A model generated the notes under the pieces. The model was not told the origin of the DNA. It saw only the letters and a list, made by a program, of their open reading frames with translations, and searched no databases. From an uncultured Candidatus Saccharibacteria bacterium (GTDB taxonomy: Bacteria > Patescibacteriota > Saccharimonadia > CAZHVB01): 64,000 bases of DNA. The position numbers and the translations under genes were made by a program. Shown here one piece after another: positions 1,384-62,959 of the stretch. Numbering within the stretch: the stretch's first letter is position 1; every line of letters starts with the position of its first letter. The stretch lies in contig CAZRIY010000001.1 in NCBI GenBank assembly GCA_964600295.1, positions 91,282 through 155,281 on the forward strand, in the 5' to 3' direction.

Positions 1384-2259
1384 CTAACGGGGTAAAAAGA
1401 GGTCGATATAGAGGTTGAATAACTGCTGACCGTGAAGCATGCCGATAATAGTGGCTGCAATCAGGAACGGCCCGAAGGGTATGACGTCCTTGCGGTTGAG
1501 CCGTTTGGCCGCAATCAGTACCAAGCTATAGGTCGCTGCGAGGTTAAAACCGACAAAAAAGGCCACCATACCTCTGTTAGTACCGAGAATCAACCCCATC
1601 AAGAGGGCCAGTTTGACATCGCCACCTCCCATCCAGCGACCGCGGCCCAACCAATGAAGAGCGAAGAAAAACAAACCGGCCAGTGTGGCTGCCAGTAGAT
1701 GGCTGCTGATAACCCCGACCGATCGGTTAATTACCGCACCGCTGATTAAACTTATGAGGGCAATCGCGAACATCGGCCACAAGATTCGATCTGGCAGGAT
1801 CATCCAGCGCAGATCATATAGCGCTAAGATTAATAACCCAGTTAAGAGTAGTAGCCAAAAGCCAAAGCTAAAATACGACCAAGCCCCGCCGAATTCCCAG
1901 AACAGATATGACCAGATAAATGAGCCGGCAGTTAGGGCTTCCACCAGAGGATATTGTTTAGAAATTGGTTTACCGCAGTAACGGCATTTGCCCCGCAGCT
2001 GCAGCCAGCTAAGCAACGGCACTAGATCCTTGACTGCAAGTTGATGCCGGCAATGGGGGCACATTGAGCGGCCAAATAGTAGACGGTAGTCAGCCTGCCT
2101 GCCGGTAGGCAAAGTAGACCGTAGTCGGCTCGTGGACGCAGGTGGTTTTTTTGTAGACTTATGTCTCCCGGCCACTGACTGCTGATGAAGTCGCCAAACC
2201 GCGGCATTGATAAAACTGCCAAAGGCCAAGCCTAAAAATCCCAGTAGAAAAATTATCAT
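1384..2259 (-). CDS. pilD: Prepilin peptidase PilD (A24 family)
   Basis: An N-terminal transmembrane helix is followed by zinc-binding CPHC...CRYC pairs and a multi-TM A24 peptidase core (e.g. GGGDVKL). Its start is coupled to the mazF stop by a 1-nt TAATG overlap. Confidence 0.88.
   Translation of the reverse strand: MIIFLLGFLGLAFGSFINAAVWRLHQQSVAGRHKSTKKPPASTSRLRSTLPTGRQADYRLLFGRSMCPHCRHQLAVKDLVPLLSWLQLRGKCRYCGKPISKQYPLVEALTAGSFIWSYLFWEFGGAWSYFSFGFWLLLLTGLLILALYDLRWMILPDRILWPMFAIALISLISGAVINRSVGVISSHLLAATLAGLFFFALHWLGRGRWMGGGDVKLALLMGLILGTNRGMVAFFVGFNLAATYSLVLIAAKRLNRKDVIPFGPFLIAATIIGMLHGQQLFNLYIDLFLPR
2092..2111. repeat. In-frame copy of the GCCTGCCTRCCGGYAGGCAGGC palindromic element, encoding PTGRQA inside the pilD cytoplasmic loop
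   Basis: The sequence AGCCTGCCTGCCGGTAGGCA is flanked by an imperfect direct repeat, AGTAGACGGTAGTCAGC / AGTAGACCGTAGTCGGC. Confidence 0.6.
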
Positions 2260-3582: not shown

Positions 3583-4827
3583 TTATTGAGGCGGCGGCGC
3601 GCCACCACCACTGGCTCCGCCGAGATCGAAGTTGATTAGGCCATAGACTGGCAGTAGGATAGCGGCCACAATGACACCGACAGTAACGCCCAAAAATACC
3701 ATCAATATCGGTTCTATAGTGGTAGACATGTTTTTGGTGGCGTTATCCAACTCCTCTTCATAAAACTGAGCGGTTTTGGACATCATAGCGTCGACAGTGC
3801 CGGACTGTTCACCGATTTTTAGCATTTGGGGTACTAGAGCCAGAAAGGTCGGCTCTACTTCCAGCGCGATCGATAGGGCCTTGCCACCCTTCACTTTGTC
3901 GGCTGCTCTTTGCATGGCTTCATCCAGATGAACATTGTTCATAGAACCCCCTACGATGCGCAGCATCTCCAGCATCGGCAGACCGCTGGCCAGTAACACG
4001 CTGCTGGTGCGGCAAAAACGAGCCATATAGAGCTTTTTGAACAGTTTGCCGAAGAGGGGCAATCGTAACTTTAGCCGATCGGCAATCCGTTTGCCGCCAA
4101 GAGTGCGGAAATAACGTATCAAGGCAATACCACCACCAATTAGGATAATCAGAATCAACCACCAAAAGCTCTTCACAAAGTTGGCCACGGCTAGCAGAAT
4201 GGCGGTCAGAAACGGTAAATCTTTGCCCAAATCCTGATAAAGCTGCGAGATTTGGGGCAGGACTGTGGTTAGCATGAATAGCAGTACCAATGTAATCACT
4301 ACCAAGACAATGACGGGGTAAATCATGGCCCCGCGGATTTTGGAAATTAGCGCGTGGTCTTTTTCCTGTTGATCGGCGATACGAGCTAGCGATTTATCCA
4401 AGCTACCCGAAGCCTCACCGGCGGCAATCAGATTAACATAGATGGTGTTGAAAACTTTGGGATGCTTACCTAAGGCATCGGCTAGCGCCGTGCCGCCTTC
4501 GATGTCGGTAATGACCTGATTAACGATCGTCAGCAGCATTTTATTATCAATTTGTTCGCGGACTGTGCGCAGGCTCTGGGCCAAGGGCAGGCCGGCGTTA
4601 ATCAGAGTGGATAACTGACGGCTGAACAGCACTAGTTGCTTGGCGCCGACCCGATTGGTAATAAAACCAAACATGGCACTACCCTTATCTTTAGGCTCTA
4701 TAGTGATTGGAAACAGATCCTGGCTAATTAAGAGCTTGGCGGCTGAGCTCTCGCTATCGGCTTGGACTTCGGCTTTAACCGTCTGACCATCAAGATTATT
4801 CTTGGCGGTGTAAACAAAGGTAATCAT
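3583..4827 (-). CDS. pilC: Type IV pilus assembly platform protein PilC (GspF family)
   Basis: The 414-aa product has two GspF-type repeats with three TM segments and the typical N-terminal MITFVYTAKN...GQTVKAEV. Confidence 0.9.
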   Translation of the reverse strand: MITFVYTAKNNLDGQTVKAEVQADSESSAAKLLISQDLFPITIEPKDKGSAMFGFITNRVGAKQLVLFSRQLSTLINAGLPLAQSLRTVREQIDNKMLLTIVNQVITDIEGGTALADALGKHPKVFNTIYVNLIAAGEASGSLDKSLARIADQQEKDHALISKIRGAMIYPVIVLVVITLVLLFMLTTVLPQISQLYQDLGKDLPFLTAILLAVANFVKSFWWLILIILIGGGIALIRYFRTLGGKRIADRLKLRLPLFGKLFKKLYMARFCRTSSVLLASGLPMLEMLRIVGGSMNNVHLDEAMQRAADKVKGGKALSIALEVEPTFLALVPQMLKIGEQSGTVDAMMSKTAQFYEEELDNATKNMSTTIEPILMVFLGVTVGVIVAAILLPVYGLINFDLGGASGGGAPPPQ

Positions 4828-4952: not shown

Positions 4953-6026
4953 CTAGCCTCGCATCAGCCGTTCTAGCTCTTCTAGATCGAGCGCGTAATC
5001 TTTGGCTTCTTCGTAAGTAATAACTCCGCTATGGATGAGGGCCACCAAGGCTCGGTCCATTGATTGCATGCCTTTTTCGGCCCCGGTCTGGATTACCGCA
5101 TCCAGTTGATGAGTTTTGGCCTCGCGGATAATATTGCGCACGGCCGAGGTCACCACCAAAACTTCAGTGGCCGGTACTCGCCCGCCGCCGATCATCGGAA
5201 TCAAGCGCTGGGAGCAAACCCCCTGCAGAATAGAAGCCAATTGAACCCGGATTTGCTGCTGCTGGTGGGGCGGAAAGACATCTACCATGCGGTCGATCGA
5301 TTGGGCAGCCGAATTGGTGTGCAGAGTGGCCAGTACTAAGTGGCCAGTCTCAGCAATGGTAATGGCGGCGGCGATAGTTTCTAGATCACGCATCTCGCCA
5401 ATCAGCACTACGTCGGGGTCTTGGCGGAGGCTAGAACGCAGAGCCGAGGCAAAAGAGTAAGTGTCATAGTGGACTTCGCGCTGGACCACCATGGCTTTTT
5501 TGCTTTTATGGGTATATTCGATGGGATCCTCGATGGTAACAATATGAACGGCTTTTTGGTCATTGATCTTATCGATCATGGCGGCCAGCGTTGTGGATTT
5601 ACCGCTACCGGTAGGACCAGTCACCAGTACCAGACCGCGGGGGTACCCCGTAAAGGTTTCGATGACTTTTGGCAGCTTAAGATCTTCAAGGGTACGAATC
5701 TGGTTGGGAATTAGCCGTAGCGCCGCGGCTAGATTGCCACGTTCGTGGAAAGCGTTGACGCGGAAGCGGGCTTCATCACCAAAGGCAAAGGAAAAGTCGA
5801 ATTCTTTGTCCTTGAGCAGCATTTGTTTTTGCTCTTCGTCCAAAATTGAGAAAATTAGTTGTTCAGCAGTCTCCTCTGTTAGGGCAGGTGAATTCTCGAA
5901 CGGAATGAGCTTACCGTCGACCCGCAGGGTTGGCGGTAAACCGACTTGGAGATGAATATCCGAAGCCTTACGATTAACGACTTGTTCTAATAAAACTTCA
6001 ATCCTAGTTGGTCCGGCAGCTGCCAT
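4953..6026 (-). CDS. pilT: Twitching-motility retraction ATPase PilT
   Basis: The 357-aa product has a Walker A (GPTGSGKSTT), Asp and His boxes and a PilT-length C-terminus. Confidence 0.88.
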   Translation of the reverse strand: MAAAGPTRIEVLLEQVVNRKASDIHLQVGLPPTLRVDGKLIPFENSPALTEETAEQLIFSILDEEQKQMLLKDKEFDFSFAFGDEARFRVNAFHERGNLAAALRLIPNQIRTLEDLKLPKVIETFTGYPRGLVLVTGPTGSGKSTTLAAMIDKINDQKAVHIVTIEDPIEYTHKSKKAMVVQREVHYDTYSFASALRSSLRQDPDVVLIGEMRDLETIAAAITIAETGHLVLATLHTNSAAQSIDRMVDVFPPHQQQQIRVQLASILQGVCSQRLIPMIGGGRVPATEVLVVTSAVRNIIREAKTHQLDAVIQTGAEKGMQSMDRALVALIHSGVITYEEAKDYALDLEELERLMRG

Positions 6027-32653: not shown

Positions 32654-32773
32654 TTCTTCAGTCTCTCCTTAGTTTGTGTATGTAGCAGGGTTAGAGATCT
32701 ATCGAGCCTAGATCTACGGCTCTGCTACCTACAGCTTATTAATGATCCGGGTGGGGGTCTGGATAGCCCACAA

Positions 32774-33789: not shown

Positions 33790-35103
33790 CTAGGTGCCTG
33801 TGGCTGTGGGGGGCGGCGGCACCACTGGAGGTATAGACGAACTCACCTGTTGGGTGGGCAACGAAGGCGGGGTGGGCATTTGTTGAGTGGCTTCCGCAAC
33901 CGCTCGGCGCGCTGCTTCAATATCCAAATGCGGAGTGGCCTGCCTACCGGTAGGCATGGTCGGTGGACCCGGTTGAACCGGCGGAGACGAAGGAGCGGGC
34001 AGTGGTTTAGTCTGAGCAGAGTCGAATGGTGGCTTGATCGCTTGCAGAGTAGGCTCGATGGGCGCTGGAGGAACGGGATCCGGCTCAGGTGGATTTGGAG
34101 CCGGAGCGGGTGGTTGAAACACCGGTTGCGGGGGTGGTACGGCTAGTGGCGTTGGTTTAGTAGGATGGTATTGGTTGGACTGGTCTGGCTTGGGTGATTG
34201 TTTGTCTGGCGCATCGTGTTTGCTATGATCAGATTTTTGTTTATGCTCGTGGTGCGCCAAGTCTTTCTCTACGGCTGGTGCCAGTTCGTTATCTGATTTG
34301 GGGGCGTGATCTTTAGTCTTATCTGGAATCTGGGCGTGAGACGGAGGCTCTTGACCTAGATTTTTGACAACAGTCGCCTGGTCGGCTCCAGCCGCCATTA
34401 GCTGAGCTGCCATAGTCATTACTTTGGGCGTCGTGCCTGGGCCCGTAAAGTGGTTGGTAGCGGCCACAATGCCGGTCAATAGCGAAGTGGCAATTTGGTT
34501 ATCAAGCAATCCTGGCTGCAACGCTTCGCTTAAACTCATTAACATCTCGCTGATTGAACTGGCCTGGGGTTCAATCCATGCCACTCTATCACTTCCACCG
34601 GCAGGATTTCCGTTGGTATTAATGGCAACCAAGCGAATCTTGGAAAGTAGTTGTCGTTGGTGGGCAATGGCTGGATCGAGATCTTGGGCCGATTCTGCCC
34701 CTACAGCTACCACGGCGTCACAATGAAAATCGCCGTAGGAATATCCCAAATCGTCTTTATTAAAATTACCGTTAAAGGGTGTGATAATAATTTTCAGCCG
34801 GCCTTCCTCGGGAATGTATTTAAGTTTATCGGCCTCGGCTTTACTAGTATCCAGCTCGATCACAAAATCGCGAACACCTTTGTATTCTTTGTGCAGCAGA
34901 TTGGTAGCCAAAAAATTGAGCTCGGCCGGTATAGCCGTGGAAATGATCGCTTCGACTCGTTTGCCCATTTTTTCTAGCATCTGGGTAAGAGCCAAGACCG
35001 CCGCAATTTCGTCCAAACCGGGTGATTTGGACGTTGTTACCACCAAGCTGTTGGCTTGGCGCAATATCTCGCTTACCTGCTGCTTTTGAGTTTGCTCATC
35101 CAT
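33790..35103 (-). CDS. DHH-family phosphoesterase-like protein (NrnA-like, motifs possibly degenerate) with a Pro-rich C-terminal tail
   Basis: The N-terminal ~300 aa has DHH/DHHA1-like topology and ends near GxGGH-like GPGTTPKV, but the canonical DHH triad is not evident. The C-terminal ~130 aa are Pro/Gln-rich and low complexity. Confidence 0.45.
   Translation of the reverse strand: MDEQTQKQQVSEILRQANSLVVTTSKSPGLDEIAAVLALTQMLEKMGKRVEAIISTAIPAELNFLATNLLHKEYKGVRDFVIELDTSKAEADKLKYIPEEGRLKIIITPFNGNFNKDDLGYSYGDFHCDAVVAVGAESAQDLDPAIAHQRQLLSKIRLVAINTNGNPAGGSDRVAWIEPQASSISEMLMSLSEALQPGLLDNQIATSLLTGIVAATNHFTGPGTTPKVMTMAAQLMAAGADQATVVKNLGQEPPSHAQIPDKTKDHAPKSDNELAPAVEKDLAHHEHKQKSDHSKHDAPDKQSPKPDQSNQYHPTKPTPLAVPPPQPVFQPPAPAPNPPEPDPVPPAPIEPTLQAIKPPFDSAQTKPLPAPSSPPVQPGPPTMPTGRQATPHLDIEAARRAVAEATQQMPTPPSLPTQQVSSSIPPVVPPPPTATGT
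33947..33969. repeat. In-frame copy of the palindromic element (TGCCTACCGGTAGGCA core), encoding MPTGRQAT in the DHH-like protein tail
   Basis: The sequence GGCCTGCCTACCGGTAGGCATGG contains a 16-bp perfect palindrome. Confidence 0.6.
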
Positions 35104-35213: not shown

Positions 35214-35591
35214 ATGCCTGTTACTAAATCGGCCGCTAAAGCCGCCCGCCAGAATTTGCGCCGTTATAAGCGCAATCTTAAGCTAAAAAACCGCGTCAAA
35301 GGCGAGGTTAAGGCTCTAATTGCCGCCATTGCAGCTAGTGATACCAAGGCCACCACCGAAAAGCTCAAAACCGCACAGTCAACGCTGGATAAAGCCGCTA
35401 AAACCGGTGTTATTCATGCCAATAAAGCCGCCCGCCAAAAATCTCGGTTGGCTAAGTTGGCTAGTGGCAAAACTAAAGCCGCCACAACCACATCCAAGGC
35501 ACAGGCCAAACCTATCTTGCCTACCGGCAGGCAGGCAACCAAAGCCACCCCTAAACCCGCACCCAAAACTGCTGCCAAGAAAGCTTCTTAG
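35214..35591 (+). CDS. rpsT: 30S ribosomal protein S20 with a Lys/Ala-rich C-terminal extension
   Basis: The product starts MPVTKSAAKAARQNLRRYKRNLKLKNRVK. The ORF table begins at 35160, but the S20 homology starts at the ATG at 35214. It is adjacent to holA, as in Firmicutes. Confidence 0.85.
   Translation: MPVTKSAAKAARQNLRRYKRNLKLKNRVKGEVKALIAAIAASDTKATTEKLKTAQSTLDKAAKTGVIHANKAARQKSRLAKLASGKTKAATTTSKAQAKPILPTGRQATKATPKPAPKTAAKKAS
35517..35540. repeat. In-frame copy of the palindromic element inside the rpsT tail, encoding LPTGRQAT
   Basis: The sequence is TTGCCTACCGGCAGGCAGGCAACC. Confidence 0.6.
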
Positions 35592-62889: not shown

Positions 62890-62935
62890 GTTTTTTATCT
62901 TACCGCGCGCGTCACTTGGTTTCTAGCCTGCCTGC

Positions 62936-62959
62936 CGGCAGGCAGGCTGGTTGCTTAGT
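62936..62959. promoter_or_regulatory. 24-bp perfect palindrome AGCCTGCCTGCCGGCAGGCAGGCT in the murE-like/tsaD divergent intergenic region
   Basis: This perfect inverted repeat is the full-length form of the element seen in-frame at 2092, 33947 and 35517. Confidence 0.6.

Follow-up and report, generated by a model that had tools for sequence, protein, structure and literature searches.

RESULTS

Four copies of a short palindrome in a Saccharibacteria contig

The 64,000-nt stretch analyzed here (the window) comes from an uncultured Candidatus Saccharibacteria bacterium (GenBank assembly GCA_964600295.1, contig CAZRIY010000001.1, positions 91,282 to 155,281 of the forward strand). The names given to the best-matching proteins likewise indicate a Saccharimonadia bacterium of the candidate phyla radiation. 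The window contains four copies of a palindromic element that we call P, defined as the 20-mer CCTGCCT[G/A]CCGG[C/T]AGGCAGG. P is a GC-rich palindrome of 20 bp that is capable of forming a hairpin or cruciform. Three copies lie inside protein-coding genes, namely, the prepilin peptidase gene pilD (1384 to 2259, - strand), a gene for a DHH-like protein (33790 to 35103, - strand), and rpsT, which encodes ribosomal protein S20 (35214 to 35591, + strand). Pfam supports the identities of the genes; the match of the DHH-like protein to the Pfam DHH family is weak and falls under the curated cut-off. The fourth copy is intergenic and lies between the divergent starts of a Mur ligase gene (62889, - strand) and tsaD (62984, + strand). 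Coordinates given without a label are those of the window, and loci outside it carry an L number.

An initial annotation of this DNA had reported four copies of the palindrome, and this count was confirmed. The 22-mer GCCTGCCTRCCGGYAGGCAGGC, allowed up to 3 mismatches, gave four matches in the window versus 0.00 expected (100 shuffles), and a relaxed scan at up to 6 mismatches found no further copies of P there. The core CTRCCGGYAG matched five times versus 0.26 expected. Its fifth match (CTACCGGTAG at 5605 to 5614, - strand) proved to be a chance match and not a copy of P, as it consists of the Walker-A/P-loop codons (GPTGSGKS) of a PilT-like ATPase.

The copy in pilD (2094 to 2113) carries 2 mismatches, its outer CC having changed to TT, and the in-frame insert of 21 nt (2092 to 2112, - strand) reads TTG CCT ACC GGC AGG CAG GCT, which encodes LPTGRQA. 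The copy in the DHH-like gene (33939 to 33958) also carries 2 mismatches, and its in-frame insert (33937 to 33957, - strand) reads ATG CCT ACC GGT AGG CAG GCC, which encodes MPTGRQA in a Pro-rich C-terminal tail. The copy in rpsT (35516 to 35535) carries 1 mismatch, and its in-frame insert (35517 to 35537, + strand) reads TTG CCT ACC GGC AGG CAG GCA, which encodes LPTGRQA in a Lys/Ala/Thr/Pro-rich C-terminal extension. The coding strand of all three is xTGCCTACCGGYAGGCAGGC, and translation bore out the earlier statement that each copy is in frame and is read as PTGRQA (PilD, ..RSTLPTGRQADY..; DHH, ..PPTMPTGRQATP..; S20, ..KPILPTGRQATK..). The intergenic copy is a perfect P (62927 to 62946) within the 24-bp perfect palindrome AGCCTGCCTGCCGGCAGGCAGGCT (62925 to 62948), which the initial annotation had correctly placed in the divergent region between the Mur ligase gene and tsaD. 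Its coordinates were off by ~9 to 11 nt for the copies in the DHH-like gene and the intergenic region. It had also held that only one frame and orientation of the element, the one read in the coding copies, is free of stops; this is not the case, since five of the six frame/orientation combinations are open.

The outermost bases of the three genic copies are TT, CT, and CA in place of CC. When folded as single strands, these copies reach -4.2 to -6.0 kcal/mol (z = -0.4 to -2.0), versus -12.3 kcal/mol (z = -3.6) for the intergenic copy. Because their outer bases are mutated and their folding is weak, the genic copies look either older or selected for weaker structure, and the intergenic copy, which is intact, is probably younger than they are. 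The copy in the DHH-like gene represents a CATGCC sub-variant that is shared with L011, L084, and a tandem array in L166. The intergenic copy lacks a T-tract and is located between genes that start divergently, and a terminator scan did not call it an intrinsic terminator. No Rfam family matched P.

The genic copies are inserted DNA

All three coding copies lie in linkers or low-complexity tails, as had been noted in the initial annotation. In PilD, the insert falls in the variable linker that leads from the first transmembrane helix to the CxxC..CxxC region. In S20, the insert makes up residues 102 to 108 of the C-terminal tail, beyond the S20 domain, whose last residue is 82. Alignment of PilD with 16 orthologues revealed an exact 7-residue gap, from ..ST to DY.., and the orthologue DNA is uninterrupted at this site (..TCT ACN|GAC TAC..). 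The motif P[AT]GRQ was found in none of the homologues that were compared (0/119 PilD, 0/36 S20, and 0/119 DHH), and the nearest relative of the DHH-like protein (63% identity) has SPDGKPA at the position of the insert. Because the homologues lack the peptide, P in these genes represents inserted DNA, and the possibility that PTGRQA is a conserved peptide can be set aside.

Locus L248, a relative that shares the gene order S20-DHH-truB-rpsO-pnp and has a DHH-like protein with 63% identity, lacks the copy of P in S20. It instead carries a P-like insert of 22 nt (20 nt plus a CA repeat) in the intergenic region between rpsO and pnp (L248:5232-5253). The corresponding region of the window (32654 to 32773) is a clean empty site, with flanks and a pnp leader that are ~90% identical to those of L248. 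This pair of an empty and a filled site, together with the orthologues that lack the peptide, upholds the initial proposal that P is an insertion element acting at the DNA level. Given these presence-absence differences between L248 and the window, copies of P have been gained or lost over the time that separates close relatives.

The copy in pilD is flanked by a direct repeat of 17 nt (15/17 identical) that encodes RLRST on one side and (A)DYRLL on the other. The initial annotation had likened this repeat to a target-site duplication. The repeat exists, but the duplication was ruled out, since pilD orthologues without P already have both halves of the repeat side by side (9 to 11 of 14 nt alike), which makes the repeat ancestral, and since 38 of 39 pairs compared at other loci show no duplication.

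Decayed P-like stretches were seen in the Pro-rich tail of the DHH-like protein, where 33844 to 33861 (- strand) of the window encodes SLPTQQV in the same frame as the insert. The tail of the L248 protein has two such stretches, again in the same frame (PPAGGQI and PPSGGQV, at 3910 to 3929 and 4039 to 4058). This low-complexity tail may have been built in part from old insertions. Near pilD, a MazE/PemK toxin-antitoxin pair (2259 to 2818) lies between a pilin gene and pilD in the type IV pilus cluster, and it is kept in a relative (L122).

P is dispersed across bacterial phyla and viruses

The 19-mer that is common to the four window copies served as the search pattern for bacterial contigs (one genome per species) and viral contigs. 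It was found at 120 or more bacterial genome loci, versus ~17 estimated by chance, and at 42 viral-contig loci. The 5' CC of P lies outside the search pattern and yet is present in ~96% of cores; thus, the matches are true copies of the 20-mer and not chance occurrences. Hosts among the matches listed include members of the candidate phyla radiation (CPR), Omnitrophota, Bacteroidota, Planctomycetota, delta- and gammaproteobacteria, Bdellovibrionota, and Chloroflexi, as well as two cultured isolates; no cyanobacterial label appears among the listed bacterial and viral matches. The sequences that flank P are unrelated between loci. Direct repeats flank 13% of P sites versus 3% of controls, and inverted repeats flank 8% versus 2%. 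At these frequencies, flanking repeats were ruled out as a universal feature of P, although the enrichment of inverted repeats fits a preference for loops.

P is depleted from genes. Open frames of at least 150 codons contain 37% of P sites (149 sites) versus 79% of random positions, and 63% versus 21%, respectively, lie outside such frames. Where P does occur in a gene, it is 21 nt (7 codons) long, lies in a variable linker, and is usually read as LP(A/T)GRQ(A/V/G). Among frames of at least 300 codons, some of which may not be genes where the DNA is GC-rich, the frame read is that of LP[A/T]GRQ at 18 of 23 sites (binomial p = 1.3e-5). Believable host proteins include a tryptophanyl-tRNA synthetase (TrpRS), an FtsK-like protein, a class-I aminoacyl-tRNA synthetase, trigger factor, a histidine kinase, and RmlB. 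The TrpRS, which is from another phylum, shows an exact 7-residue gap when compared with PDB 2A4M.

Many solo copies of P are embedded in short tandem repeats that resemble heptamers (GTAATTC, TTGATAC, GGTTCCT, etc.; L091, L096, L043, L107, L049, and L060), and these flanks recall the STRR/SDR contexts of cyanobacteria. In a viral contig, L166:3918-4142 is a tandem array of the 21-nt unit CCATGCCTACCGGCAGGCAGG, which encodes (MPTGRQA)n and runs off the contig end (see also L165:4720-4760). A sub-family with the sequence CCTGTCTGCCGACAGGCAGG is present in L168, L172, L176, L177, L222, L225, L229, and L239, and its changes at T5 and A12 are always coupled. These two positions would pair in a register that is shifted by 4 nt (CCTGNC-TGCC-GN'CAGG + CAGG), and folding showed that the centered hairpin tolerates both changes too. 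The coupling may reflect covariation or common descent.

A GIY-YIG nuclease cassette is linked to P at tRNA-Leu genes

When the open reading frames (ORFs) neighboring P were clustered, a single recurrent small family emerged, which is a GIY-YIG ORF of ~80 amino acids (aa). No other recurrent neighbor gene was found at these P-selected loci beyond a generic sensor-kinase cluster. The initial annotation had named a transposase of the type associated with repetitive extragenic palindromic (REP) sequences, called RAYT, as a potential partner. RAYT/IS200-like ORFs were found at 4 of ~120 P-selected loci, two of them adjacent, where they lie among other hairpin repeats and seemingly belong with other REP sequences, and none was found in the window; a RAYT was thus rejected as the partner of P.

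The association also holds when loci are selected by protein alone. We fetched 80 metagenome loci with the peptide patterns ARKREKYL and KSG[VC]GKE[FY] and found P, exact or with up to 3 mismatches, at 70 of them, always at a distance of no more than ~350 nt from the GIY-YIG gene. In 55 of these protein-fetched loci, P lies 12 to 90 nt upstream of the start codon, most often at 20 to 30 nt. A tRNA is present at 74 of the 80 loci, and tRNA-Leu accounts for 83 of the 101 tRNAs. At the loci inspected first, the ~80-aa ORF lies next to a duplicated pseudo-tRNA fragment as well as an intact tRNA, and P is all that distinguishes the two. A Saccharibacteria genome contains one such GIY-YIG cassette with two copies of P (L054).

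The GIY-YIG protein is ~78 aa long and consists only of the catalytic domain (Pfam PF01541, E = 1.4e-17). Among solved structures, it is closest to those of the UPF0213 proteins 1ZG2 and 1YWL and next closest to the eukaryotic SLX1 structure-specific endonucleases. The protein corresponds to a group that has been described as prokaryotic Slx1-like minimal GIY-YIG proteins (PMC1564403).

Several loci depart from this arrangement. In L051:2751-4892, a type I restriction HsdS-like ORF contains an in-frame P (PACRQAG) and, ~15 codons later, a complete GIY-YIG domain. In L086:4758-5042, an ORF of the same GIY-YIG family lies inside a 23S-rRNA-like sequence, and there is no canonical palindrome nearby. 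L104 (upstream of 3099, - strand) and L026 contain tandem arrays of pseudo-tRNAs in which another GC hairpin (cccgcccaaggcggga and similar) takes the place of the D-arm, which suggests that other small hairpin modules behave like P. In the viral contig L153 (2239 to 2330), and also in L128, ARAGORN identified a 92-nt tRNA-Met(CAT) that has P in its variable loop and thus a long variable arm. This P-bearing tRNA-Met, which is the only tRNA of L153, might still be functional.

P is inserted exactly and into loops

Within a locus, the pseudo-tRNA fragment can be compared directly with the intact tRNA. Of 39 such comparisons, 38 show P as an insertion of exactly 20 bp, with neither duplication nor deletion. 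The insertion points are the D-loop (GGAA|TTGG), GGTAGA|CGC, the anticodon loop, the variable arm, and the T-loop, all of which are loops or stem-loop junctions. P also inserts into itself. All five nested cases are at C|CGG / CCG|G, which is one base off center in the CCGG loop of P, and none is at the exact center. A strict C|C target rule held in the first examples and was then abandoned, as cassette-associated copies show A|T, A|A, and A|C. The length of the insert varies with context and is 20 nt in pseudo-tRNAs, 21 nt in pilD and the TrpRS gene, and 22 nt in the intergenic region of L248.

DISCUSSION

P is precisely inserted, prefers loops, nests within itself, is polymorphic between relatives, is depleted from genes, is linked to an SLX1-like cassette at tRNA-Leu genes, and occurs in phages. 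On balance, we lean slightly toward the view that the sequences in the window are solo copies of a tiny insertional element, P, which is the palindromic partner of a selfish GIY-YIG cassette found across phyla. That the nuclease mobilizes P is suggested by their genomic association.

Under this model, an identical 20-mer would be carried between phyla by the cassette, whose target gene is universally conserved and which also occurs in phages. The putative structure-specific GIY-YIG nuclease would recognize extruded hairpins, nick them at stem-loop junctions, and promote the copying or pasting of P in trans, and host repair or ligation would complete the insertion. Inserts of 20 to 22 nt could then consist of the 20-nt unit plus 0 to 2 nt of duplicated target, produced by variable processing of the 2-nt staggered cuts that are typical of GIY-YIG enzymes. 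It is for I-TevI and SegB (PMC2330249) that such cuts have been established, not for the SLX1-like family to which the cassette protein belongs. Within genes, P would survive solely as 3n insertions, which would explain its depletion there. The frame bias would most simply reflect selection for a Cys-free, flexible LPxGRQA reading, and the genic copies in the window would be older survivors that are tolerated as a flexible, Cys-free heptapeptide in disordered segments.

A number of points weigh against this model. To our knowledge, GIY-YIG enzymes are hydrolytic, and we know of no strand-transfer or ligation activity among them; because of this, a host repair or ligation step must be assumed. 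The 64-kb window contains no GIY-YIG ORF, and more than 90% of the P copies that were found by sequence are solo. The asymmetric A-variant of P occurs in mixed orientation relative to the GIY-YIG gene. The varying length of the insert (20, 21, or 22 nt) is not predicted by one clean mechanism unless the ends are variably processed. Finally, the association itself could reflect a cassette that recruited an independently mobile hairpin.

This last point leads to the main rival explanation, in which P moves autonomously, as a "very small mobile repeat" like the cyanobacterial SDRs, and is spread into hairpin loops by a host process (replication or repair, or an RNA-mediated process), and GIY-YIG cassettes repeatedly acquired P or use it as a 5' module. 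As such a module, P could neutralize the pseudo-tRNA fragment, break its homology with the intact tRNA, or stabilize the mRNA. The prevalence of solo copies and the mixed orientation are both in keeping with an autonomous P, as are the position of P in the pseudo-tRNA, which varies by cassette (D-loop, D/anticodon junction, anticodon loop, variable arm, and T-loop), and its nested copies and embedding in tandem heptamer-like repeats (L091, L096, and L043), which are said to be found for SDRs as well. However, P is present in 70 of 80 cassettes, with a stereotyped spacing to the start codon, which is far above what would be expected of a passive sink. Identity of the 20-mer across phyla also calls for a shared sequence-specific factor or vehicle, and the nuclease is the sole protein found to travel with P, no other gene recurring next to it. 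We therefore consider an autonomous P that was merely recruited by the cassette to be unlikely, though worth serious attention.

Solo copies could alternatively be footprints, that is, a terminal palindrome left behind after a whole GIY-YIG cassette inserted and was then lost. P does mark the 5' boundary of the cassette at most loci, and the HsdS gene of L051, with its in-frame P and GIY-YIG domain, shows that cassettes can enter coding DNA. Nonetheless, this scenario requires insertions of at least 300 bp in pilD, rpsT, the TrpRS gene, and others, each followed by exact loss, whereas solo copies have no other cassette-derived sequence in their flanks, and this route does not readily produce nested copies or inserts of exactly 20 bp in pseudo-tRNAs; we regard it as very unlikely. 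Least probable of all is that P is a motif of use to the host (a palindrome with a regulatory or protein-binding role, a terminator, a DNA uptake sequence, or a PTGRQA peptide under selection): an intergenic copy in a divergent promoter region, the type IV pilus genes of this organism, and the strong frame bias of coding copies would suit such a role, but orthologues lack the peptide, identical DNA is found in unrelated genes, pseudo-tRNAs, phages, and many phyla and so is not species specific, T-tract and Rfam match are both absent, there are just 4 copies in 64 kb, and the ends of the genic copies show decay.

Returning to a mobile P with a nuclease partner, it is possible, if somewhat short of probable in our judgment, that P and the ~78-aa SLX1-like GIY-YIG nuclease form a previously undescribed mobile system of bacteria and phages, in which a cassette that rides on tRNA-Leu genes crosses phyla and a 20-bp hairpin is dispersed in trans into hairpin loops. 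Full-text literature searches found neither the P sequence nor its peptide strings, and topic searches on GIY-YIG proteins with tRNA, hairpins, or palindromes found only work on phage Seg proteins and mitochondria. If the proposal is true, P would rank as the smallest mobile element for which an enzyme partner has been identified. The system would then quite generally give rise to 7-residue (LPxGRQA) insertions and low-complexity tails in conserved proteins (PilD, S20, TrpRS, and FtsK, for example), as well as to extended variable arms in tRNAs. If the link between the two holds, it would provide an enzyme partner for the puzzling "very small mobile repeats" of ~20 nt and a biological role for the functionally uncharacterized SLX1-like/UPF0213 GIY-YIG proteins that are widespread in prokaryotes. 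The link would also explain why an identical 20-mer is present in CPR, Bacteroidota, Planctomycetota, Omnitrophota, Proteobacteria, and phages. On a practical level, P is a recurrent source of spurious-looking heptapeptides (LPAGRQA, PACRQAG, and ACLPAGR) and small ORFs in metagenome annotation, and its presence or absence is a marker for strain-level evolution in uncultured lineages. The compact, putatively hairpin-specific nuclease suggests itself as a subject for biochemistry.

Among known systems, REP/REPIN elements and their RAYTs share with P the use of short GC-rich palindromes that are mostly extragenic and have many dispersed solo copies, and a single cognate nuclease-type gene that is flanked by its own palindrome. 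The apparent cognate gene of P, however, encodes a GIY-YIG (SLX1-like) protein and not an HUH/Y1 transposase. REP sequences are lineage specific and coevolve with their RAYTs, whereas P is identical across phyla and phages. P is also single rather than arranged in inverted doublets, has exact in-frame genic copies, and occurs at a much lower density. Miniature inverted-repeat transposable elements (MITEs) have terminal inverted repeats around an interior of 50 to 500 bp and make a target-site duplication of fixed length, in contrast to P, which totals 20 bp and shows no duplication (38/39 pairs). DNA uptake sequences (USS/DUS), which function in transformation, are species-specific 9- to 12-mers that occur about once per kb, unlike the four cross-phylum copies of P per 64 kb.

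The free-standing GIY-YIG homing endonuclease SegB is encoded in a tRNA gene cluster of T4-like phages (PMC2330249). As with the cassette described here, Seg genes of T4-like phages lie among or next to tRNA genes and behave as selfish DNA. Seg proteins and I-TevI, however, have C-terminal DNA-binding modules, whereas the P-associated protein is a bare SLX1-like catalytic domain (PMC1564403). The duplicated pseudo-tRNA fragment and the fixed palindrome of the P-associated cassette likewise set it apart from Seg.

P resembles the SDR type of repeat in being ~20 nt long, exactly inserted, nested (5 copies), and surrounded by heptamer-like flanks. The repeats SDR1 to SDR8, which Elhai and colleagues are said to have described in Genome Research (18:1484) in 2008 in heterocystous cyanobacteria, are reportedly ~20 to 27 nt long, self-nesting, and located in tandem heptamer repeats. 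They reportedly make no target duplication, have no internal transposase, are confined to one cyanobacterial subgroup, and have no identified protein partner. Compared with SDR1 to SDR8 as they are described, P probably differs in sequence, spans many phyla as well as phages, and has a strongly associated nuclease gene. Lastly, the Rickettsia palindromic elements (~100 to 150 bp) and the GC clusters of yeast mitochondria (~30 to 50 bp) are both restricted to their lineages, and we know of no GIY-YIG partner documented for either. Like P, they are palindromic selfish DNA that is tolerated in frame in protein-coding genes.

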